From a virus: DNA of 64,000 nt. The notes beneath the pieces were generated by a model, which saw only the letters and a program-made list of their open reading frames with translations, searched no databases and was not told the origin of the DNA. The first letter of the stretch is position 1, and every line of letters begins with the position of its first letter. The position numbers were made by a program, and so were the translations under genes. Location: the IMG/VR virus record IMGVR_UViG_3300045988_180454, positions 1-64,000 of that record; one strand, written 5' to 3'. Shown here in pieces: positions 1,185-64,000 of the stretch.

Positions 1185-1460
1185 CCTGGTCAGAGTAGGT
1201 TTTTGTTACTGCAAGTCCGCTACTAGGTTGCACGCAACCGCCGATTTTTGTGTCGTTTTTTGTGTTTTTGAGGTTTTTGTACATCTACAGTGACGAAAAT
1301 CGACGCAAAACAGCAGGTCAAAGCACATTTTTGAAAACCCTTGACACACATACATAACACAAAAACTTGGCAAACATGCAGGTCAGAGTAGGTTTTTAAA
1401 CGTTTTTATGTGTTTATGTGACGTAAATAGACATAAAACACCAGGTCAGGGGCTATTTTT
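1185..1460 (+). promoter_or_regulatory. four plus-oriented copies of the ~20-nt motif SCAGGTCAGAGTAGGTTTTT
   Basis: Copies read directly: 1185-1204 CCTGGTCAGAGTAGGTTTTT, 1313-1332 GCAGGTCAAAGCACATTTTT, 1378-1397 GCAGGTCAGAGTAGGTTTTT, 1441-1460 CCAGGTCAGGGGCTATTTTT. A weaker variant lies near 1062 (GATCAGAGAAGTTTTTTTT). TAGGTT fits the actinobacterial -10 pattern TANNNT. Confidence 0.55.
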
Positions 1461-1479: not shown

Positions 1480-1670
1480 TGGCCGGCTATAGCATCTAGA
1501 TGCTGATCTAGCCGCTAGCGCATAGCGGCTAGCACCCCCCCCGCTAGCCGGATTCTCTCTATATACAGCCCCTAGCAGCGCGCTAGGGGCGATTGAGCAG
1601 GCGTTTTAGGCTTATCCCTCCCTAGGGCGATTTTCTATGCCCTAGGCACCCGCTAGCCTAGGGGCGTTTC
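1480..1670. repeat. CTAG-core palindrome cluster (GCTAGC, CCTAGG, TCTAGA)
   Basis: About 11 CTAG tetramers in about 190 bp by eye. Includes the perfect 14-bp palindrome AGCATCTAGATGCT (1491-1504), GCCGCTA-N5-TAGCGGC and CCCCTAGC-N5-GCTAGGGG. Confidence 0.75.
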
Positions 1671-17119: not shown

Positions 17120-18666
17120 TGTTAGCCCCGTTTCAAAAGGACGGGGTGTCTTTTTTAACCAAAAGGCAAGGTGGCTTACTTGCTGACCAACCTGGGACAG
17201 GAAAGACACTCCAGATGATCGAGACAATAAAAAGCTTAGTTAACCAAGGAGATATTCTTGTCCTAGCGCCAAAGGTGGCAGCTGATGTTTCTTGGCCAGA
17301 AGAGCTAGCGAAGTGGTCGGACGATGAGGTTGTCGTTATTACAGGCGGGAAGGCTAAAAAGGAAAAGCTTCTTCAGCAAGTTGTTTCATCGAAGCCGCAG
17401 GGTCGTAGGTGGATTGTGGCCAATTTTGAGACAGCGAGAGTCCGGTATCTCCGTGGGAATCCGGTAATGAAAACCAAGCCTTACTACGAAGAGCACTTCA
17501 AGGATCTTTTCAAGATCTACCCAAGAGCACTTATCATTGATGAGTCGCACCTCGTTCTTCCAACGAACAAAACCAAGCTTTATAAACAGACCTTGGTGCG
17601 TCGTGGGATTATGATGTTGGCTAAAAAGTCTCTATATCGCTTTGCTGTCTCTGGTACCCCTGTTCGGGGGAGGCTAGAAAACCTCTGGGGCACCTTAGAT
17701 TTTCTATCTAATTCAAAAATTGAGTCCTATTGGACGTGGGTAGACCGGTGGTTTATTACAAGACCAAAAGAGATCTATACGAAGTCTAAAGCGGTACAGA
17801 CAACAGAAATCATTGGATTAAACCCCCTTCTTAAAGAAGACTTCGCTAAGCAACTAGACGGAGTGATGATTCGCCGTAAGAAGCTTGATGTGTTCCCAGA
17901 GCTTCCGCCAAAGCGTTATGCTGGTTCAACTCTGCATGGTGTTGTTGGTCACTGGATTGATTTAACGCCAAGTCAGAAAAGGTTTTATAAGCAAATGAAG
18001 GGGTTGGCATTAACCCGGCTTACCTCTGGAACCCTTGTTGCTCAGGGGATTTTGGCTGAACTCACGAGGCTAAAGCAGTTCGCTAGCGTTTCGGGTGATG
18101 TCGCTTATTCTGTAGATGGTGCAACTATTTTTAATCCTGCTCTTCCTTCTAATAAGTTTGATTGGCTCATAGACTTTCTCACTGAGCGTGGCATTATTGA
18201 CCAGCCAGAGGCGGAATCAAAAGAGGACGGCAAGGTAGTTATCGCTAGTCAGTTTAGTCAAGTGCTTGATCTTTTTGAGAAGGCCTTACTTGATAAATAT
18301 GGTGTCAAATGTTGGAAGATCACGGGGGAAGTTTCATCTAAGAAACGAAGCGAAGGGGTAGAAGATTTCCAGAAAGAGGATTCGGGGCTTCGAGTGATGT
18401 TACTCAACACCAAGTCCGGCGGTGTCGCGCTCACGCTTGACCGTGCCGATGAGCTGGTGATCTTGGATGAGACTTTTATTCCTGATGACCAAGAACAGGT
18501 AGAGGATCGGATTCACCGGGTGAGTCGGATTCACAATGTGATTGTGCACTACGTACGGTCAAAGGGCACAATTGAGGAGACCATTGCGAAAAAGGTTCAA
18601 AAGCGGGAAGAGCTACAAAAACAAATCTTAGATGGGAGCTATGATGTCAAGCAGCTATTTACCTAA
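17119..18666 (+). CDS. SNF2-family (DEAD/DEAH-like) helicase
   Basis: Motif I DQPGTGKT, motif II IIDESH, and C-terminal helicase motifs DETFIPDDQEQVEDRIHRVSR. Confidence 0.85.
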   Translation: MLAPFQKDGVSFLTKRQGGLLADQPGTGKTLQMIETIKSLVNQGDILVLAPKVAADVSWPEELAKWSDDEVVVITGGKAKKEKLLQQVVSSKPQGRRWIVANFETARVRYLRGNPVMKTKPYYEEHFKDLFKIYPRALIIDESHLVLPTNKTKLYKQTLVRRGIMMLAKKSLYRFAVSGTPVRGRLENLWGTLDFLSNSKIESYWTWVDRWFITRPKEIYTKSKAVQTTEIIGLNPLLKEDFAKQLDGVMIRRKKLDVFPELPPKRYAGSTLHGVVGHWIDLTPSQKRFYKQMKGLALTRLTSGTLVAQGILAELTRLKQFASVSGDVAYSVDGATIFNPALPSNKFDWLIDFLTERGIIDQPEAESKEDGKVVIASQFSQVLDLFEKALLDKYGVKCWKITGEVSSKKRSEGVEDFQKEDSGLRVMLLNTKSGGVALTLDRADELVILDETFIPDDQEQVEDRIHRVSRIHNVIVHYVRSKGTIEETIAKKVQKREELQKQILDGSYDVKQLFT

Positions 18667-20055: not shown

Positions 20056-20767
20056 TAGCTTAGAGACAGCAGAGTCTGTGAGCGAAAAGGTTAACATCTT
20101 GGTGTATGGTCCACCTGCTGTTGGTAAGACCTTTTTTGCGGGTAGCGGGGCTAATGATGGTAAGGGTGTTTTAATTTTATCTATTGAAAATGGACTGAAC
20201 GCCATTAGCCGACCGGGCAATAAAACAAAAATCAAGCGGATAGAAACGTACCCTAAGCTTTTGGAAGCAGTGGAGTGGGTGCAGAAAAACCCTTACGTTT
20301 TCGATTGGGTTATTGTAGATTCGCTTTCTCGGGTGCAGTCAAAGCTTATTTGGCCGTGGATTGCCGAGAACCGCAAAGCGAATCGGGACAAACTTAATCG
20401 TGAGCTGCAAGAATACAATACTGCGTTTCTCCACACCGAAAAACTCATTGATGACCTTTGCTATAGTAAAGCAAATGTTATTTTCTTGGCGACGGATACA
20501 TCTTTAAAAGAAGACTCTCGCATCATTTGCCCTGACATTGATGGTCGCAAGGGAAAAATGCCGGATTACCTTATGGGTCGCATGGATCTTGCGTTCTATG
20601 TTTCTATCGCACAAAATAATCAAGGTGAAATCATACGAAAGTTTGATAGTACACCCCATGAATTTATCCGCACCCAGGATAAGCTGGGGCTTTATCCTAA
20701 GCCTGTGGCAAATCTCACACTTGAACGACTCACAAATGACATGCAAGCTAAATATGGGGTAGACTAG
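20036..20767 (+). CDS. AAA/RecA-like ATPase (Sak4-type recombination ATPase candidate)
   Basis: Walker A VYGPPAVGKT and Walker B-like WVIVDSL. GAGGTGG SD upstream. Confidence 0.7.
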   Translation: MSDQFLDSLETAESVSEKVNILVYGPPAVGKTFFAGSGANDGKGVLILSIENGLNAISRPGNKTKIKRIETYPKLLEAVEWVQKNPYVFDWVIVDSLSRVQSKLIWPWIAENRKANRDKLNRELQEYNTAFLHTEKLIDDLCYSKANVIFLATDTSLKEDSRIICPDIDGRKGKMPDYLMGRMDLAFYVSIAQNNQGEIIRKFDSTPHEFIRTQDKLGLYPKPVANLTLERLTNDMQAKYGVD

Positions 20768-24939: not shown

Positions 24940-25534
24940 GCATATTGAATTTGATTTCTCCAAAGAAGATCTTTGGGAGCTAATAAGGGACAATAAGTTG
25001 CGATTTAAGCCCCAAGAAGATGATTTTATTGCAGCAGTTGATCCGGGTGGAGTAACTGGAATCGCTGTTGCGTGTCTGAAAGACGAGCCGAAAGACTTTT
25101 CTGATATTTATTGGCTAGCGACATCGCAATATGATTTCCGAGAGTTTCAGACTACAGAAGATCTATTCACCGCAGAAGATGAATTTGTGCACCGATTTTT
25201 TGACTTCCTTGAAACCTGGCCTATTGCTGATGATTTTGATTACGGGTTTGTGCACATCATCGTTGAGGATTTTATTCTTCGCCAAGGCGGAATGGGGAGA
25301 GAGCTGCTTTCTCCGGTCAGAATTGCATCGAAGATTCAATATGCAGAAAAATTTCATGACCACGAGTATTACCCATGGACAGATCTTATGTATCAGTCTC
25401 CCAGCTCTATTAAAACTACCTGCACACCAGAAAGGATGAAAGCGTGGGGATTCCCAGAACTCAATCATTCACAGCGACACAGTTTCGATGCTTTGCGCCA
25501 TATCGCCTTTCAGGTCCGCTCATTGATGGTGTAG
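24923..25534 (+). CDS. RuvC-like Holliday junction resolvase
   Basis: AAVDPGGVTGIAV (first catalytic Asp), IIVEDF (Glu), and HSFDALRH (C-terminal acidic/His pair). The TTG start is uncertain. Confidence 0.6.
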   Translation: MSNSIRHIEFDFSKEDLWELIRDNKLRFKPQEDDFIAAVDPGGVTGIAVACLKDEPKDFSDIYWLATSQYDFREFQTTEDLFTAEDEFVHRFFDFLETWPIADDFDYGFVHIIVEDFILRQGGMGRELLSPVRIASKIQYAEKFHDHEYYPWTDLMYQSPSSIKTTCTPERMKAWGFPELNHSQRHSFDALRHIAFQVRSLMV

Positions 25535-26100
25535 AAAAACCAGGGGAAAAATTCTATCTTTGCAAGAAAGATATCTTTCAACTCTTAGGTGTTCCTCTTA
25601 CCCCGCAGGATCAAAACAATCTCGTCCAGAGAGCACGAAGAAGAAAACCTCCCATACCCACCCATTATTGGTATTCCTCCCATCACCGAATGAGCTTGGA
25701 AGAATCCCTCGCTTTTCTTGAGAGAATCAAGGGATATCCTAAATTTCAAAACCTAGACTTTGGTTGGCAAAAAGAGCTGATAATCAACGCCTGTTGTGAT
25801 TTAAAAGACACCTATCCGCTCAACGCTTTGTTGATTTATCTTGGTTTGTCTAGCTCATCAGGGATTCCTGGAAGCAAAAGGGATTTTTCTTCCCAGTATG
25901 CTAAAATGCCTTGTATACCTAAAAGCCTGACCCAGCGAATTTACCCCTGGATCAGAAGTACATATCTCGTAGATAAGGCTGTAGCAGATGAGATCAGCCT
26001 CCGGAAAGACAAAGGTGAAGAGCTTCACATGATAATTGCTAGTCTTGAGACTCCGCTTATGCTAAACTTGAGCTCAAGAAAAGGAGATATCAATGCTTAA
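25444..26100 (+). CDS. hypothetical protein (start uncertain)
   Basis: GTG 25444 overlaps the upstream gene by 91 nt. There is no ATG until well inside the ORF. A basic patch RARRRKPPIP is present. Confidence 0.5.
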   Translation: MGIPRTQSFTATQFRCFAPYRLSGPLIDGVEKPGEKFYLCKKDIFQLLGVPLTPQDQNNLVQRARRRKPPIPTHYWYSSHHRMSLEESLAFLERIKGYPKFQNLDFGWQKELIINACCDLKDTYPLNALLIYLGLSSSSGIPGSKRDFSSQYAKMPCIPKSLTQRIYPWIRSTYLVDKAVADEISLRKDKGEELHMIIASLETPLMLNLSSRKGDINA

Positions 26101-32948: not shown

Positions 32949-34724
32949 TTAATCTGAGTTGAAAGCGGACTCGATTGCTCGGGTGAAGCGGGCATTAGCA
33001 CGAGACTGAATGGCCCAGGGTTCTTCAGGACGATCTGTTTCACCCAATTTAATTTCAAAGCGAACCCCATTTGAACGATTAGAACTTAAGGTGATCTGTT
33101 TTACTCGCTCTGGAAATATCTTTCCGTCCGGGGACTCCCAAGCAACGGGATCAAGTACATCAAAGTCTTCAAAAATACGGAAAGGTAAAAAGCTAGCAGA
33201 ATCCCCGGTAAAGTTCGCTGTCTTGTAACCCATTGCTGAATAGCGCTGCATACGCAGTGCTTGGGCTGCATTTGCACTATATGCGGTTGAGCCCTTTCCG
33301 CCGTAGTCCTCAAAGAGTGCGAAGTCGCCAAGGAACTTCCGGTGCTCTTTGTCCTCTGCGCGCTGGTAAGCAAAAAAAATATCGTCCAACTTCCCGGTCA
33401 ACCAGCTTAGAAATAAATCAAATGCCACACCGATAAGCTTTAACGCCTGTTGAATTAAGGTACGAACAATGAGCTTGATTCCCTGGTTTAAGAACTCGTT
33501 TGACTTACCACCCGTGATAGAGCTAGTGCTTGTTGGTGCATAAGCACTGATTTCAAATTGAGACCAATGCTGCTCACTATTGCGGAAAATTGGCCAAGTA
33601 ACGTTGTACCGCCTACCATCTGTGCCAAAAAAGGATTTAAGGAAATCCGTGTTTTCTGTCGCGTCAAGGCTAGGTGGCATGTCGTACCGTCCAAACAGCC
33701 CGCGCAAATAAACTCTCGCTGTTTCGGTGAGGTTAGACCAAAAGTCACGATAGGTTGGATCCGTTCGAGACCGGTCTTTATCAATGAAATCAATGACCAC
33801 GCAAGGGCGACTCAAAAACAATCCGGGCGGGGAAATATCTCGTCCAGGAACGAAAAAGTAAACATTGGGGAGGATATTATAATCTTTACAACATTCAGCA
33901 CTAAGCTCTGCTAATGTATCCATTTGCGCCACAAGGGTAGTAAGTGGCGCAGTATCCGCTGTCTTTTTTGTTGGCACTACAACAACTGGATGCATAAAAT
34001 CTTGAAGATTACGCCAATTGGCTTCATTTTCTTGATACTCATGAGCAGCAATTGCCTGGTCAAGATCAAAAATTAATCGCTTAGAGGGGACCTGCAAACG
34101 GAAAGCAGCCTTAATACAGTATTGTTTTATTAGCCAAATAGCCGGGCCTGAAGCCATATCTCGCTTAGGCACTTGAGATTTTAAAGCCATAAAAGGACTT
34201 GGCCACGCAAGCATGTATTTAAGCCAGATTTTGTCGTGGTCGCACTCTACTTTGAGTTCTGATTGCGGGCCAGAGCCTGACCAACCTACGCGAGAAACCC
34301 GACCTGTCCATGTCTTAATAATATAGCCGGCTCGGGAAACAATAAAGTGCACCAAGCAAACCTGAATATTGGTGCGAAGAAAGTGTTTAGCCCAAGAACT
34401 TGTACCCGCCAAAGTAAAGCTGCTTGCGTCGGTTGCGTCAACCTCTGAGGTCCAAGTCACATCCGCTTCTACATAATCTTCGACGTTACCAAGCCACCGT
34501 CCTTGTCCGTCCCGAATTTCAATCGTAAGCTTGTATTCGTCTTCTCGCTCTTTGGCTGGGCGGTAAAATTCAGGAAGTTCCTCGAACCGTTCAGTTTCTC
34601 GCCAAGGCTCAGAGCCATAGTTAATAGGCAGTCCACCACGGGCTTGCCCTGGCTGAAGATTTAAATAGCGATTATAATCTATGTCCACGAAATATACTCC
34701 GGTGTAAAGCTGAGGTAGGGCCAC
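32949..34724 (-). CDS. minor tail protein (591 aa)
   Basis: Second gene after the tape measure, so called by position and size. The GTG start is uncertain (34688 is an alternative). Confidence 0.6.
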   Translation of the reverse strand: MALPQLYTGVYFVDIDYNRYLNLQPGQARGGLPINYGSEPWRETERFEELPEFYRPAKEREDEYKLTIEIRDGQGRWLGNVEDYVEADVTWTSEVDATDASSFTLAGTSSWAKHFLRTNIQVCLVHFIVSRAGYIIKTWTGRVSRVGWSGSGPQSELKVECDHDKIWLKYMLAWPSPFMALKSQVPKRDMASGPAIWLIKQYCIKAAFRLQVPSKRLIFDLDQAIAAHEYQENEANWRNLQDFMHPVVVVPTKKTADTAPLTTLVAQMDTLAELSAECCKDYNILPNVYFFVPGRDISPPGLFLSRPCVVIDFIDKDRSRTDPTYRDFWSNLTETARVYLRGLFGRYDMPPSLDATENTDFLKSFFGTDGRRYNVTWPIFRNSEQHWSQFEISAYAPTSTSSITGGKSNEFLNQGIKLIVRTLIQQALKLIGVAFDLFLSWLTGKLDDIFFAYQRAEDKEHRKFLGDFALFEDYGGKGSTAYSANAAQALRMQRYSAMGYKTANFTGDSASFLPFRIFEDFDVLDPVAWESPDGKIFPERVKQITLSSNRSNGVRFEIKLGETDRPEEPWAIQSRANARFTRAIESAFNSD

Positions 34725-55582: not shown

Positions 55583-56875
55583 TTATTCAGCTAAGCGTTC
55601 AACGGATTCAACCCATTGATTTACCAGGTCTTTGAAATCGGGTGGGACAAAGCCCTCGCCTTTTACAAACTTCCCTGTTTCTGGGTCGGTTTTCCCACCT
55701 TTGAACTTGGTGCGGTTTGATTCGCAAACCCGTTCGAGTGCTGCTGAAAGATCGTAACCGGTATGGGTTTTCACCGCCAAGCCTAAAAGAGTGAAAAGAA
55801 CGTCGCCGAAGGCGTCGTAAAGATCGGTGAGCACTTTTTCTCGGTATTCTTGATCCAACGCAAACTTGGGCTTCGCCATGAGGTTTACCGCTGATTTGAG
55901 TTCGTCTACTTCTTCGAGGAAGAAGTTCAGTGCTGGACGAAGCAGTGCTTCCCGGTCGCCTTCTGCATTCAACAGGATTTTCATATGGTCTGAAATGCTT
56001 GGCGGGATTTGTCCAACCTGCATGTTCCAGTTGCTTACTTCGTTGACGAAACCATCAAAAGCCCAGTTTTGTGATTCCTTATAAGTAGTTGGCGCTTTGG
56101 GGTCTGTGCTTAAGCCTGCGTCTTCAAGAACCTTACCAAAAACCGCACGGTCAAGATTGTAAAGTTCTTCGGCAATAAGTGCGATTACTGACCGGAACTC
56201 CGCATCTACACCTGCATCAGAACGCTTCTGAATAATTTCTGACCAGGTTCGGAAGTTACCTGTAACCACAATTGATGTCGCGGTAGCATTTGGCAATACA
56301 CAGCGAGCTGCTTCCGCTGCTTGTTTTTTAGAAGCCTCCGGGTGATAGCGCATTACCATGTCGAAAAGCTTATTGTACAGGTCTACGCTTTCGTTGGCGA
56401 AGCACTCTAGCTTTGCTTCCATTGATGCTTTAGGTGAAAGCGGAGGATAACTACCGCTATGAGTGAGGGGGAGGTCTTGTAAAGCCGGGGGAAGCACCAT
56501 CTCTAACCCCTTATCTGGGGAAACAAAACGCTGAGACAGTACGCTAAACGACAAGTGGCGGTGGCGCGTAAGCTCTGCCAAGAATGACCGGCTTACACTT
56601 TCAAGAAGGAATGTTGCCGAAGCGTGTTCCATGATGGAGTAGTGGTGTTTTTCATGGATCGTCTTCTCTACGTACTTAGTCGGCGTGTTGGTTTCCTCAT
56701 TTGGACGATCCCAAGACTGGTAGCAGTTCCGTCCCGCAAACTCAATAAGACGGGTTGAATCTGGATCACCTGGTTCATGAGGAAGCACGTGTCCAAAATC
56801 GTAGTTGAACTCTGGATTTAGCCGGGTGAAGGCAAGTAATGTTACTTGCGGAGTCTGAGAGATTCGCACATTCAT
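55583..56875 (-). CDS. thyX: ThyX (flavin-dependent thymidylate synthase) fused to a MazG-like NTP pyrophosphohydrolase domain
   Basis: ThyX signature RHRHLSFSVLSQRF in the N-terminal ~260 aa. The C-terminal ~140 aa carries FFLEEVDELKSAV...LYDAFGDVLFTLLGLAV, a MazG-type EExxE/D helix pair. Confidence 0.8.
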   Translation of the reverse strand: MNVRISQTPQVTLLAFTRLNPEFNYDFGHVLPHEPGDPDSTRLIEFAGRNCYQSWDRPNEETNTPTKYVEKTIHEKHHYSIMEHASATFLLESVSRSFLAELTRHRHLSFSVLSQRFVSPDKGLEMVLPPALQDLPLTHSGSYPPLSPKASMEAKLECFANESVDLYNKLFDMVMRYHPEASKKQAAEAARCVLPNATATSIVVTGNFRTWSEIIQKRSDAGVDAEFRSVIALIAEELYNLDRAVFGKVLEDAGLSTDPKAPTTYKESQNWAFDGFVNEVSNWNMQVGQIPPSISDHMKILLNAEGDREALLRPALNFFLEEVDELKSAVNLMAKPKFALDQEYREKVLTDLYDAFGDVLFTLLGLAVKTHTGYDLSAALERVCESNRTKFKGGKTDPETGKFVKGEGFVPPDFKDLVNQWVESVERLAE

Positions 56876-60993: not shown

Positions 60994-61162
60994 GTATTTT
61001 CCTTTCTGTGTCGTGACTCAATTATATATGACAGGGGAGGGGTTCAAGGTTTTGAGTCAAGATATCTTTGTCACACGTTAAAGCAAAACAAAAACAAAAA
61101 AAATTATGCAGAAAAACTTGAGTTAAGTGAGTTTTTGAGTTAACGGTGTTCAAAACATATCT

Positions 61163-61903
61163 TGACCTGCATAAATACCTAACTCAAATTCAAATCAAAA
61201 GTTGAGTTAGGGTTTTGAGTCAGAAAAAGTTGAGTTGGAGACGTTTAAACACAAAGAAACTCAAAAATTTACCCAAAAAAGTTGAGTTGAGTTGAGTTTT
61301 TGAGTTAAGTCAATGAAACCCACTCTGACCTGCACAAACCCGTAACTCAACTTTAACTCAAAAACTGAGTTGAGTTGAGTTAGGCGAAAAACTGAGTTGA
61401 AATTTAAAGCAAAATAAATCGAAAAATTTGTACAAAAAAGTTGAGTTACTTGAGTTAATTTGAGTTTACCCTATTTGACCTGCGGAAATGCTGACTCAAA
61501 TTCCAACTCAAGTTTTGAGTTGAGTTTTGAGTTGAGGATTGTCCGGGTTTCAGACTTCGGTTGAGCCGCCGGTGAGGCAAGGAAGAGACCGCAACCCACC
61601 GATTATGGCGCTGAAACAGGGTCTCAACTCAAATTCTGACTCAGTTTTCGCAAAAACAGCAAGACTCTGACCTGCATAAATACGTAACTCAAATTCTAAC
61701 TCAAAAAGTTGAGTTGGCCTTTTCGCTGGTCAGGATAGGTTTTTAGGGGCTAACTCAAAAACTCAACTTTTTTGTCGATATTTTATAACTAATAACGCTT
61801 TAACGCTTATTAGTTGTGCACAGCTGTATTTTCTCTATACGCATTATTTTACAATTTAAATTGAGTTATTGAGTTAGAGTAGTGAAAAGGGTATCTGACC
61901 TGG
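61163..61903 (-). promoter_or_regulatory. five minus-oriented copies of the GCAGGTCA motif (plus two plus-oriented copies)
   Basis: TGACCTGC/G on the plus strand at 61163-61170, 61326-61333, 61476-61483, 61668-61675 and 61896-61903. Plus-oriented CTGGTCAGGATAGGTTTTT at 61726-61744 and CCAGGTCAGAAT at 61943-61954. Confidence 0.55.
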
Positions 61904-62045
61904 TAAAACAGTAACTCAATTTCAACTCAACTTTTTATTTTCCCAGGTCAGAATTTGAGTTGAAACTGAGTTAGCAGTTCAGAGGGTATTTTTGAAACAC
62001 GAAAAACCGGGATTTCGGGTTTCCAACTCAAAAAGTTGAGTTAGG

Positions 62046-62095
62046 CAGAAAAAGACGCCTTGACTAAAAAACCGAAAGCGGCTGGTTCAAGGCGT
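62046..62095 (-). terminator. terminator after terS
   Basis: ACGCCTTGA (62055-62063) pairs with TCAAGGCGT (62087-62095). A CTTTTTCTG run follows on the minus strand. The loop is 23 nt and contains a sub-hairpin. Confidence 0.55.
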
Positions 62096-62119
62096 GTGCT
62101 CAAATTTGAGCGGCTGATT

Positions 62120-62644
62120 TTAAGAATATTGGTTGTACAGATTCTGCTGTTGCTTCTCCCACTCCTGAGCGAAAGTGCGGTCATTCGTAGCCGCGGCTCG
62201 GAGTTGTTCGCTGCGCTGCACCGCGGTGTTCCCTTGAGCGATAGTCCAGCGGAGCTTGACACGCGCCTCAGGCGTGAGTCCGAATTGTTTAATGCCGTCC
62301 ATCCAAAGCTTTTGGAATCGTGCTCGGTCGGCGGCCTTGTACATTGGGTTCAAGGATTCCTGGAGGTCTCCAGCGAGAATCACGAGGGTGTGATAGTCTG
62401 CGGCTGTCCATTCGCTCACCATCGGCGAGGTCCAGATCTCTTCCCACCAGCGGAGGACTACCGGGGACCATTTCGTCTCCTCGGCACCGATAAGATCGGC
62501 GGGAAAACCCACGACTTCGCTAGCAGGCGGAAGCTCTGGTAAGCTAGCTAGCAGCTCTTCTCGCGGCCTTTGTGCTAGCATGGTGGTAGCGGCCTTGGCA
62601 CCCTTTTTTGACGGGCCTCCGGGCTTCCTGGGGGGTCCTGGCAT
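62120..62644 (-). CDS. terS: terminase small subunit (P27 family-like)
   Basis: 174 aa with a basic N-terminus. FGLTPEARVKL and a preceding W/Y-rich helical region resemble phage P27-type small terminases. Confidence 0.65.
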   Translation of the reverse strand: MPGPPRKPGGPSKKGAKAATTMLAQRPREELLASLPELPPASEVVGFPADLIGAEETKWSPVVLRWWEEIWTSPMVSEWTAADYHTLVILAGDLQESLNPMYKAADRARFQKLWMDGIKQFGLTPEARVKLRWTIAQGNTAVQRSEQLRAAATNDRTFAQEWEKQQQNLYNQYS

Positions 62645-63718
62645 AGCGATATGGTCCTTTCCTTAGCTGAGCAGGGTCATCAAGGACATTTTACCCCAAT
62701 CCCTCGCAGAGCGAAATGTGCAGCACGCGCCCGGCTCGGCCCCAGATAGGGGGAGGGGGTACCCCTGGGTGAGGTAGAACGGGGGTAATTTGTGGGGGTA
62801 GTCGCTTTGTTTCCCCTGGTGAGTCGCAATATATATACCGCAAATTGGGCATGGGTGGGGGTATATAAGTGGGTTTCTCTGGTTGCATGGGGTTGTCTGA
62901 CCACCTGTTTTTACCGGAAAAACCCGGTTTTTTGCTTGTTTTATCAGTTTCTCTTAAGTCTTGCATGGATTTTGCATGCTATAGGTCAATCTTTTTACGG
63001 TCTATAGCATCAACTAAAAGTTTGATTGTAGCAATAGGTGTGGGTGGTTTTCCCTATCAAGGCCATTTCTTAGGGTAGGCTATGCTCACGTACGGGTGCA
63101 CGCAATCGGTATGGCAATTGAACTATAGGATTGTCCATAGGTGCCGATAGGCATACCGCATCAAAGGGATTGCCTATGTGTGCCTATCCACCATATAGGC
63201 AAGTGTATATAAAGCCGAATATAATAATTCGCAATCGTTTATATAGGCCATGCCTCAATATACCCGGCTAGGGGCTATCCGGGTGGTGCCTACCCCCTAG
63301 GCATGCCATGCAGCATGCCTAGCAGCCATGTGCTAGCGCTATGCCATGGCCTGCTGATCTAGGCCACTCAAAAGCGTATGGCCTAGCAGCCTCATAGACG
63401 CACGAACTCAAAGCCATATAGCCGATCATACCAGCGAGATATAAAGCCGCTGTATCGAGCTGCTAGGCTATCTATATCACATATCCCCTGGTGAGTAGAT
63501 AGTGATATGTGGTGTGGTGCCAGTGGATACCCCTATGATAGCAATGGTACTAATAGGCTATATGTGTGGTGTACTATCAGTATGCCATATGGCATATCCC
63601 TAGGCATGCCAAAACCCTACCTATAGTAGGTACCTATATAGATACCCCTATAGATAGGGTTGGTATATGGATACCCCCTATAGCAGGGGGCATAGAGTAT
63701 GCCTATACGATAGATAGG
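62645..63718. repeat. 1.07-kb ORF-free block of G-runs and ATAGGC / CATGCC / CTAGG / CTATAG words
   Basis: G5 runs at 62745-62895. ATAGGC/GCCTAT at least 9 times between 63070 and 63710. GCATGCC/CTAGC words at 63290-63400. TCCCCTGGTGAGT at 62811 and 63484. Confidence 0.8.
62908..62935 (+). terminator. weak plus-strand hairpin + T-run inside the repeat block
   Basis: ACCGG-AAAAAC-CCGGT followed by TTTTTTGC. The stem is only 5 bp. Confidence 0.3.
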
Positions 63719-64000
63719 TCAGTGGTAGTCAAACATGTGTTCGATACGGTCGATAAGCAGGGGGCTACCGGAATCGGTCAACCAAAAGTTTTTGGCACGG
63801 AAATATTGGTAAAAATCTACCCAGTTTTCCCACCAAAATAATTCGTCTAAAGGCACCCGGTGGGCGTCGTGGTGGATATCAAAGCCGGTTTTGGGGCGAT
63901 AGCCAAATACGTGTTTTTGTGCCATACCACCGGCTAAAAAGCGATTTTGATTGTGGTTATGGCTGACCCACCAAGTGACGCGACCAAAATCCGGGTGGAT
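63719..64000 (-). CDS. hypothetical protein, 5' end outside the window
   Basis: The frame of ORF 63719..63925 stays open to position 64000 (IHPDFGRVTWWVSHNHNQNRFLAGGMAQKH...). Confidence 0.55.
   Translation of the reverse strand: MHPDFGRVTWWVSHNHNQNRFLAGGMAQKHVFGYRPKTGFDIHHDAHRVPLDELFWWENWVDFYQYFRAKNFWLTDSGSPLLIDRIEHMFDYH

Follow-up and report, generated by a model that had tools for sequence, protein, structure and literature searches.

An oriented motif of actinobacterial phage non-coding blocks that recurs in Streptomycetaceae oriC and a mycobacteriophage attachment site: a possible site for a conserved host architectural protein

In a 64,000-nucleotide stretch of viral DNA (positions 1 to 64,000 of IMG/VR record IMGVR_UViG_3300045988_180454; this whole stretch is called the window below), a short asymmetric motif is repeated in two non-coding blocks, A and B, that head the two gene arms of a siphophage genome. 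Our preferred reading of this unit of about 20 nt, (T-rich)-S-CWGGTCAGAG-N3-4-(G)TTTT, which we hold tentatively and from sequence patterns, is that it is an oriented site for a DNA-binding, and probably DNA-bending, host protein conserved in Actinobacteria. A wider proposal is less secure still, a possibility more than an expectation: GCAGGTCAGAG-N3-GTTTTT may be a hitherto unrecognised, phylum-wide actinobacterial cis-element, a specific docking point for a conserved protein, nucleoid or architectural, that would aid origin assembly in Streptomycetaceae, and that actinophages and integrating elements would have copied into their origins, phage attachment sites (attP) and cohesive ends (cos). 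An earlier note on this DNA had proposed a phage-specific promoter class or an operator of the stoperator type. The first of these cannot stand as worded, since the core is also present in at least five unrelated phage lineages and in actinobacterial chromosomes, including the chromosomal replication origin (oriC).

In the window the motif takes the form SCWGGTCAGAG-N3-4-(G)TTTT and has twelve copies. The four copies of block A are all on the plus strand, with spacings of 128, 65 and 63 bp: A1 (1185-1204, CCTGGTCAGAGTAGGTTTTT), the same in six relatives except for one G>A change; A2 (1313-1332, GCAGGTCAAAGCACATTTTT), which scores 24.9 with a position weight matrix (PWM) of the motif; A3 (1378-1397, GCAGGTCAGAGTAGGTTTTT), identical to the consensus with 0 mismatches and followed by T-tracts from 1393, 1403 and 1413; and A4 (1441-1460, CCAGGTCAGGGGCTATTTTT), followed by T5 tracts from 1456, 1466 and 1476. 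Block B has five minus and three plus copies. The minus copies are B1 (61151-61170, GCAGGTCAAGATATGTTTTG), inside a 160-bp unit, B2 (61314-61333, GCAGGTCAGAGTGGGTTTCA), B3 (61464-61483, GCAGGTCAAATAGGGTAAAC), with a TAGGGT hexamer, B4 (61656-61675, GCAGGTCAGAGTCTTGCTGT) and B6 (61884-61903, CCAGGTCAGATACCCTTTTC), their TGACC being at 61163, 61326, 61476, 61668 and 61896. The plus copies are B5 (61725-61744, GCTGGTCAGGATAGGTTTTT), which faces away from the leftward arm and forms an inverted pair with B4 as its left arm; B7 (61943-61962, CCAGGTCAGAATTTGAGTTG), the inverted partner of B6, from which it is separated by a 39-nt gap and with which 10 of 11 bases are complementary; and B8 (61974-61993, GCAGTTCAGAGGGTATTTTT). 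The earlier note had counted at least 11 copies, with coordinates and sequences that are all correct; B8, which it overlooked, is the top non-training match of the PWM scan (61977, PWM 18.8). Its core has a G>T change in the window, and the close relatives all have a canonical CAGGTCA there (agCAGGTCAgaggctattttt). A thirteenth copy lies about 330 nt past the end of the window, antisense within a 232-aa open reading frame (ORF). A weak plus-strand variant at 1077-1096 (GCTGGTGAGGATTTTTTGTT, PWM 11.6) is without the TCA core and is an uncertain member.

These copies are not what base composition would produce. With up to three mismatches, the 20-mer has four matches in the window and none in 100 shuffles; CAGGTCA has 20 matches for 6.8 expected, and CWGGTCAGR 12 for 1.8. 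When one mismatch is allowed, CWGGTCAGAG is found 18 times, 10 of them in the 2.5 kb that blocks A and B occupy and eight, which is the chance level, in the 61 kb of coding arms. In the PWM scan the arms yield nothing comparable to B8, and the strong copies are confined to 1077-1460 and 61151-61993. The motif had also been thought to be shared by a third non-coding block, C, and here the claim fails: the block C sequences, like the weak variant of block A, lack the TCA core and fall under the PWM threshold. They consist of an exact pair of CCCCTGGTGAGTNG at 62813 and 63485, with a further relative at 62762; the first belongs to a plus-strand repeat, CCCCTGGTGAGTCG (62813-62826), whose twin, CCCCTGGTGAGTAG, is at 63485-63498. 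The resemblance is to copy 1185 only, through CCCCTGGT[CA]GAGTAG, and we treat the CCCCTGGTGAG repeat of block C as separate, which may nevertheless be a degenerate relative of the motif.

No close DNA relatives were found among GenBank phages, and those compared here were taken from IMG/VR and ENA. In eight of them, with 81-88% nucleotide identity to the window, the motif copies are kept, the CWGGTCA core is invariant and the T-run is retained, and the 3-6 nt after GGTCAGAG vary. The copy number of block B units differs between close relatives; the 160-bp unit that holds B1, for instance, is present in L003 and L134 and missing from L001, L002 and L004-L007. Elsewhere in IMG/VR, an exact 17-mer occurs in four unrelated contigs, a number consistent with chance, and a three-copy pattern is found in at least 120 unrelated contigs among the matches listed, none of them homologous to the window.

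The motif is present in other actinobacterial phages, and a consensus of 32 sites reads taTTT-n-cg-CAGGTCAGAg-n4-ttTt. The nearest named phages by TerL identity (53-59%) are the Corynebacterium phages Darwin, Zion, C3PO and P1201. Darwin has seven copies, as has P1201, six of which lie between gp12 and gp14 as three minus and then three plus; P1201 also has a perfect 20-bp inverted repeat built from the motif. Five copies stand in one 1.26-kb gap in two Logan contigs with only 40% TerS identity (L135, L136). BFK20 and phi673 have two copies each, one of those in BFK20 being 26 nt inside the left cohesive end, phi16 has one in its non-coding left-end region, and CL31 has four, three of them amid ACGTGTGGTA repeats directly 3' of the primase/polymerase gene. 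Finally, the Gordonia phage GTE8, at 66% GC, has three copies in one 590-bp gap, two minus and then one plus. The sequence CAGGTCAGA is 6- to 15-fold above expectation in most of the carrier phage genomes, and all phage copies are between annotated genes or in doubtful ORFs of less than 80 aa. In BFK20, phi673, P1201 and phi16 there are copies 26-170 nt from the cohesive ends.

Who reads this site? No protein common to BFK20 and the phage of the window was detectable by tblastn, so that a shared phage-encoded reader is unlikely, and this favours a host factor. Each phage also adds a short repeat of its own, TTGAGTT in the window, TGAGCAAA in L135 and ACGTGTGGTA in CL31. The minus-then-plus groups of P1201, GTE8 and block B (where the match is 10/11 at 61894-61953) are inverted repeats, and since this order is independent of the direction of the flanking genes in GTE8 and block B, it is a property of the block itself.

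Some further observations on these phages deserve mention. At 18330-18520 of CL31 (MW582634) the three motif copies alternate with six ACGTGTGGTA(A/C) repeats resembling DnaA boxes; being immediately downstream of the primase/polymerase gene, this segment is likely an origin. The non-coding blocks of Darwin (NC_042086; 61337-62330, 64894-65608 and 66681-67743) are packed with short tandem arrays, among them about 12 copies of the 11-mer TATGGGCGCAC and arrays with periods of 8 and 15 nt, and judging by these sequences long repeat-packed non-coding blocks seem to be a trait of the family. A contig from a bacterial collection (L255), with four motif copies whose flanks are near-identical to the Darwin gp06-gp07 block, probably comes from a Darwin-like phage or prophage and was binned with a bacterial assembly.

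The evidence that takes the motif beyond phages comes from a scan of a bacterial genome collection with the pattern GCAGGTCAGAGNNNGTTTTT, which returned at least 120 loci; the counts for hosts given here are among the matches listed. Nearly all of the loci listed are in Actinomycetota, which account for 70 of the 80 tabulated (80 of at least 120). Actinomycetota make up about one tenth of the species in the collection. The genera and classes matched include Streptomyces, Kitasatospora, Nocardioides, Cellulomonas, Rhodococcus, Mycobacterium, Corynebacterium, Bifidobacterium, Coriobacteriia and Acidimicrobiia. About 32 of the listed loci are Streptomycetaceae oriC, where the order from dnaA to dnaN is GTGGACAAAAAACCGC-CTCTGACCTGC, a gap of 6-8 nt, two DnaA boxes, CCCC (the GC cluster) and TACTACTAC (the TAC-repeat unwinding module). 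In at least 10 oriC loci a second, inverted copy lies 372 bp off, across the DnaA-box cluster, and this two-copy layout is conserved over Streptomyces, Kitasatospora and Embleya. In one Streptomyces oriC (L164, 4430-5200), about 360 bp of DnaA boxes lie between two inverted CAGGTCAGAGG copies. Host copies that adjoin tRNA 3' ends number at least 26, in both orientations; in L219 and L199 a tRNA-Met gene is followed by the motif and then, after 111 or 178 nt, by a co-oriented tyrosine integrase gene. The motif also stands amid eight CTGCGTCAT repeats in a Streptomyces locus (L175), amid CTAGCACCC repeats similar to window positions 1490-1560 in a chromosomal locus of Kribbella (L165) and, in Rhodococcus (L193, L218) and Corynebacterium (L148), in reverse just ahead of the -35 of promoters that serve tRNA operons.

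A third context is the attP of mycobacteriophage L5, on which formation of the intasome requires the mycobacterial protein mIHF. In the 410-bp gap between int and xis, two copies with at most one mismatch are found for 0.02 expected, and the gap holds two further copies with two mismatches. The attP copies (L5 record, 25452-25700) are interleaved with the TGCAACTC arm-type integrase sites: one, CTGGTCAGAGGGTGTTTTC, comes directly after the tRNA-Gly core, and the other, CAGGTCAGAAG, is beside the TGCAACTC repeats.

Taken together, the invariant core, the T-rich flanks, the companion repeat that each phage has of its own and the sharing by phages without common proteins point to a conserved host protein that binds or bends DNA. 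In this proposal the reader would be supplied by the host, not by the phage, and its site would be placed wherever proteins and DNA must assemble into a higher-order complex, namely at origins, attachment sites, cohesive ends and promoter-upstream regions. Blocks A and B would then be nucleoprotein assembly regions, in which the host factor would bend the DNA so that heptamer-bound phage proteins, or RNA polymerase at nearby conventional promoters, could act. The phased T-tracts of block A fit such a bent nucleoprotein array. By analogy, block B, and possibly block A, may be an origin-like or regulatory assembly region, block B being the likeliest replication origin of this phage. The earlier note had found it odd that copies are stacked with no genes between them, an oddity that disappears if the copies are binding-site arrays or inverted groups of the type seen at origins and attachment sites.

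The closest known parallel is that of the IHF and Fis sites of Escherichia coli and its phages, which occur in lambda attP (H1, H2, H') and cos (I1), in oriC, in the origins of iteron plasmids and in RIP/BIME elements. Like IHF sites, the motif consists of an asymmetric core, about 13-20 nt long, beside an A/T tract, and like them it is common to unrelated phages, to integrating elements or plasmids and to the chromosome within one clade; IHF sites are read by a host protein, as we infer for the motif. The locations are also alike, namely att sites, cos ends, origins beside initiator boxes, promoter-upstream regions and extragenic palindromes, all of which hold the motif; in Streptomycetaceae oriC, L5 attP, the cos ends of four phages and the iterons of L175 and CL31 it is found beside initiator or recombinase sites. 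In contrast, the sequence is unrelated to WATCAANNNNTTR, and strong co-orientation with transcription is a feature of the motif that is not known for IHF sites. To our knowledge, Actinobacteria have no IHF and have mIHF/sIHF as its functional analogue, which makes mIHF/sIHF the obvious candidate for the reader. Depletion of mIHF in M. tuberculosis lowers many tRNAs and brings dnaA and dnaN down more than 4-fold (PMC6155035), and these mIHF-sensitive loci are the same as those that carry host copies of the motif.

Several points weigh against this reading. The candidate reader has been reported as a non-specific DNA binder whose ChIP-seq peaks are without a motif (PMC6155035). Co-orientation with the downstream gene, found in 16 of 18 stand-alone copies, is poorly explained by a plain architectural site. 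In a minority of cases the host copy forms one arm of a classic terminator hairpin, and the motif abuts a terminator in CL31 and phi673, both of which suggest a role at the RNA level; one and the same sequence is found both singly and within hairpins. The inverted groups face outward in phages and inward in Streptomyces oriC, and the GC-skew minimum near the blocks is confounded with the direction of transcription. Because many matches are orthologous (oriC, the tRNA-Pro flank), the independent host occurrences are far fewer than 120. Lastly, protein binding to the motif is itself deduced from sequence, and the origin function of block B by analogy.

The co-orientation calls for consideration of a promoter-associated element. 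In such a scheme, the core would sit at about -22 to -13, directly 5' of a weak TANNNT -10, and recruit host RNA polymerase, whether unaided or together with a conserved activator; the arrays would be tandem and divergent promoters for both arms and for short non-coding transcripts. We regard this as somewhat unlikely, the strongest of the alternatives nonetheless. The motif is a genuine, oriented, non-coding cis-element whose direction tracks transcription: the 16 of 18 copies that point to the next gene are those outside inverted groups, come from eight phages, and many are 56-200 nt from the start codon. In the divergent blocks of Darwin, P1201 and L135 the minus copies face minus genes and the plus copies plus genes, and the integrase genes of L219 and L199 are co-oriented with the motif upstream of them. 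Also, TerS ends in a terminator-like hairpin, so the leftward arm requires a new promoter within block B. In the window, the earlier remark that orientation mostly follows the nearest arm applies to nine of the twelve copies and not for the three plus copies of block B, which face the 3' end of TerS. In addition, B5, B7 and B8, the minus copies of GTE8, the phi16 copy and about 10 host copies at tRNA 3' ends face no gene, and 800 nt separate copy A4 from the first gene of the rightward arm.

The proposed -10 hexamer fares similarly. TANNNT is found 2-5 nt past GGTCA in 8 of the 12 window copies and in all three of GTE8 despite its 66% GC, but in only 6 of 20 tabulated sites of Darwin, P1201, L135 and BFK20, which is not above chance once the T-run is allowed for. 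Its offset from the first G of GGTCA varies from 7 to 12 nt, and it drifts in close relatives where the core stays: at A3 the relatives' hexamers are TAGGTT, TATGTT and GGTGTT, and the TAGGGT of B3 in the window becomes GGGGGT or AGGGGT. The TTGGCA noted earlier at copy 1378 is indeed present (1367-1372), 16 nt upstream of TAGGTT at 1389-1394, but the 32-site alignment has no -35 at a fixed distance on either strand, and in a consensus promoter scan the blocks are no richer in promoter-like sites than shuffles. Reading the reverse strand, with TGACC as a -35 or TGn as an extended -10, was rejected, as it fits only phi16 and a few other sites.

In several cases conventional promoters seem instead to lie between the motif and the gene. 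A canonical minus-strand TATAAT (61021-61026) that precedes the GTG start (60993) of the first leftward gene by 28 nt, and lies downstream of all motif copies, is a candidate for the promoter of the leftward arm, and L135 has TTGACA-N17-TACAAT in this position. In both CL31 and phi673 the stop codon is followed by the motif, then by a terminator hairpin, a canonical TTGnnn-N17-TACAGT promoter and the gene, so that a transcript started at the motif would meet the terminator. The BFK20 F1 promoter (33091-33176), strong in C. glutamicum expression systems, is without the motif. Conserved elements that stand before a weak -10 and replace the -35 are known from the MotA-box middle promoters of T4 and the PafBC -26 element (RecA-NDp). 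The motif resembles them in being oriented, in front of operons and upstream of a weak -10; it differs in that its spacing to TANNNT is variable (2-7 nt), the sequence and 8-nt spacing of RecA-NDp are unmatched, and many copies face no gene.

The hairpins raise the question of whether the motif acts at RNA 3' ends, as part of a terminator, a pause site or a stabilising hairpin, the core forming one arm of a stem and the T-run supplying the U-tract or the loop; arrays in phages would then be bidirectional insulators between transcription units. We think this unlikely. A complementary arm within 70 nt is present in 17 of the 120 listed host copies (about 1.8 expected), which fold as long terminator hairpins of 15-19 bp with U-runs; in them, G.U pairing favours the forward strand and there is covariation in the outer stem. 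The host copies adjoining tRNA 3' ends agree with this, as do glnA loci in which the stop codon, motif and hairpin follow one another (L156, L172), the same succession in CL31 and phi673, the perfect inverted repeat of P1201, and the L5 copy at the tRNA-Gly core, which doubles as the 5' arm of a terminator hairpin. In block A, a hairpin followed by a T-run lies 22 nt past A1 (1226-1239, plus strand, GGTTGCACGCAACC) and is kept in relatives (GGTTGTGCACAACC) by a compensatory change from C-G to T-A; it could be the terminator of a very short transcript or a palindromic binding site.

Set against this, the other 103 listed host copies are single, with no partner arm within 70 nt, and neither have 10 of the 12 window copies; as an intrinsic terminator, only B6/B7 can pair in the window, around a 39-nt loop. 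A copy in P1201, CAGGTCAGAGGGTGTTTTT, nearly identical over 17 nt to that of L5, has no partner arm where the L5 copy has one, which means that the sequence is conserved and not merely the structure. The motif thus shares with intrinsic terminators a T-run past a GC-rich core and, in a minority of host copies and in L5, the arms of hairpins after tRNA genes; it differs from them in that most copies are without a partner arm and sequence is conserved rather than pairing. The copies in Streptomyces oriC are 372 bp apart, there is no rightward transcription upstream of block A, and four or five co-oriented terminators directly 5' of each arm would stop the phage's own transcription. A search of the window and 12 host loci found no Rfam family, nor any tRNA.

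Another possibility is that the motif marks the junctions of mobile modules, either as a terminal inverted repeat or as a recombination hot-spot that moves cassettes among actinobacterial phages and integrating elements, with inverted pairs TGACCTG...CAGGTCA delimiting miniature elements. CL31 and phi673 are otherwise unrelated, yet share a cassette (20293-20430 in CL31, 27990-27830 in phi673) comprising the motif, a CCCCTAAAC hairpin, the TTGnnn-N17-TACAGT promoter and a gene that begins MFSE; similarity sets in exactly at the motif, in what looks like a mosaic junction. Minus-then-plus pairs delimit units of 60-72 bp in the window and in P1201, the number of units varies in close relatives, and the motif adjoins tRNA-integrase junctions. 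However, most copies are single or in co-oriented arrays, no target-site duplication is evident and no transposase is nearby, and conservation in the essential oriC of an entire family is hard to square with mobility. We therefore consider mobility quite improbable.

The stoperator-type operator of the earlier note, an asymmetric site for a phage repressor, is barely plausible. The stoperators of Cluster A mycobacteriophages are scattered genome-wide, in tens of copies, through short intergenic gaps; they belong to one immunity group and are the targets of the phage repressor. They are mentioned in PMC5559632. Like them, the motif is short, asymmetric, in multiple copies and mostly co-oriented with transcription. 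Unlike them, it is gathered in two blocks, with no copy in the intergenic gaps of the arms, and is common to phages unrelated in their proteins and to host chromosomes, which does not agree with specificity for an immunity group. The single orientation of stoperators is kept by the nine window copies that follow the arms and broken by three in block B and by the copy past the window end. Among 40 products compared with Pfam (early and replication-arm ORFs and genes flanking the blocks) there was no repressor or integrase, the sole DNA-binding domain being an AntA/KilAC antirepressor.

Known sites were also compared. The MtrA box, found at mycobacterial oriC and dnaA, is bound by a conserved actinobacterial regulator known to bind oriC, and its half-site, GTnAC(C), resembles the reverse-strand TGACC of the motif; its consensus is of two such direct repeats about 11 bp apart, with a spacer of 4-5 nt, loosely conserved, in contrast to the single, tightly conserved 10-11-mer described here (PMC5650626, PMC6265350). 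It was ruled out, as neither the 32-site consensus nor the oriC copies contain a second half-site. A Chi-like polar protection of ends was ruled out as well, the cos-proximal copies of BFK20, phi673 and P1201 facing the wrong way. The consensuses of alternative sigma factors, the DnaA box, parS, the LexA, DtxR and GlxR boxes, E. coli Chi and IncP-type nick sites do not fit.

The arrangement of the blocks can now be described. The genome in the window has about 46% GC and two arms, a rightward replication arm with genes for ribonucleotide reductase, helicase, exonuclease, polymerase and primase, and a leftward arm of structural and lysis genes. In the IMG/VR relatives, window positions 63998 and 45 are only about 1.7 kb apart, which places the three blocks in one region of about 5 kb that also carries TerS (62120-62644, minus strand) and a short leftward operon. 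The window is thus a circular permutation short of about 1.7 kb; the junction is spanned in relatives by L004 (2899-4643), where the short operon that joins the window ends extends the minus-strand genes of 63-889. Terminator-like hairpins at 62050-62112 come right after the TerS stop codon, making TerS a lone single-gene unit between two long non-coding blocks.

In block A, T-tracts with a spacing of about 10 nt run among A2-A4 on the plus strand (1240-1485); besides those following A3 and A4, they start at 1245, 1256, 1265 and 1274. The DNA is predicted from this phasing to be curved, and conservation of the region among relatives reaches 91%, compared with 81-88% overall. The second half of the block (1490-1700) has dense CTAG-bearing repeats (GCTAGC, CCTAGG, CTAGCACCC). 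Block B (60994-62119) is non-coding, with 36% GC, units of about 160 bp and, next to B1-B8, 34 TTGAGTT/AACTCAA heptamers that run both ways, many of them making AACTCAA-N4-TTGAGTT hairpins. By its sequence, this set looks like an iteron array for a phage-specific protein. The density of heptamers (34 in 1.1 kb) and the low GC would suit an iteron origin, yet the block adjoins TerS, not the primase or polymerase gene. Analogous blocks with other short repeats are found in L135, Darwin, CL31 and the Streptomyces locus L175. Block C (62645-63718) is 1.07 kb of non-coding DNA with many CTATAG, CCTATAG and ATAGGC repeats. An ENA contig terminates 75 nt upstream of TerS and the physical left end of Darwin is 94 nt upstream of its TerS; by analogy, the physical genome termini are probably in block C, some 75-95 nt upstream of TerS, near 62720-62740. 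Elsewhere, at 55583-56875 (minus strand), one 430-aa ORF fuses a ThyX thymidylate synthase and a MazG-like pyrophosphohydrolase, which are separate genes in Darwin and P1201.

The open-access literature, searched by sequence and also by subject, yielded no account of the motif, which is not proof of novelty. The kind of element, a host-factor site common to the chromosome and mobile elements, is known; what seems to be new is this element in particular, together with its occurrence in oriC, in attP and in the control blocks of actinophages. Were it a promoter or terminator signal instead, it would be a portable, host-wide control element for Corynebacterium and Streptomyces engineering. If it is the site of a conserved host protein, it would possibly be the first high-affinity site for the 'non-specific' mIHF/sIHF, and would serve as a sequence marker by which origins and regulatory hubs could be located in sequenced actinophages, which number in the thousands and whose long non-coding blocks are as yet unannotated. 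It would also be part of integration, packaging and replication in phages of Mycobacterium, Corynebacterium and Gordonia, which matter for therapy and genetic tools. And with two conserved sites bracketing the DnaA-box cluster of Streptomycetaceae oriC, it would be a missing part of the initiation of replication in Actinobacteria.

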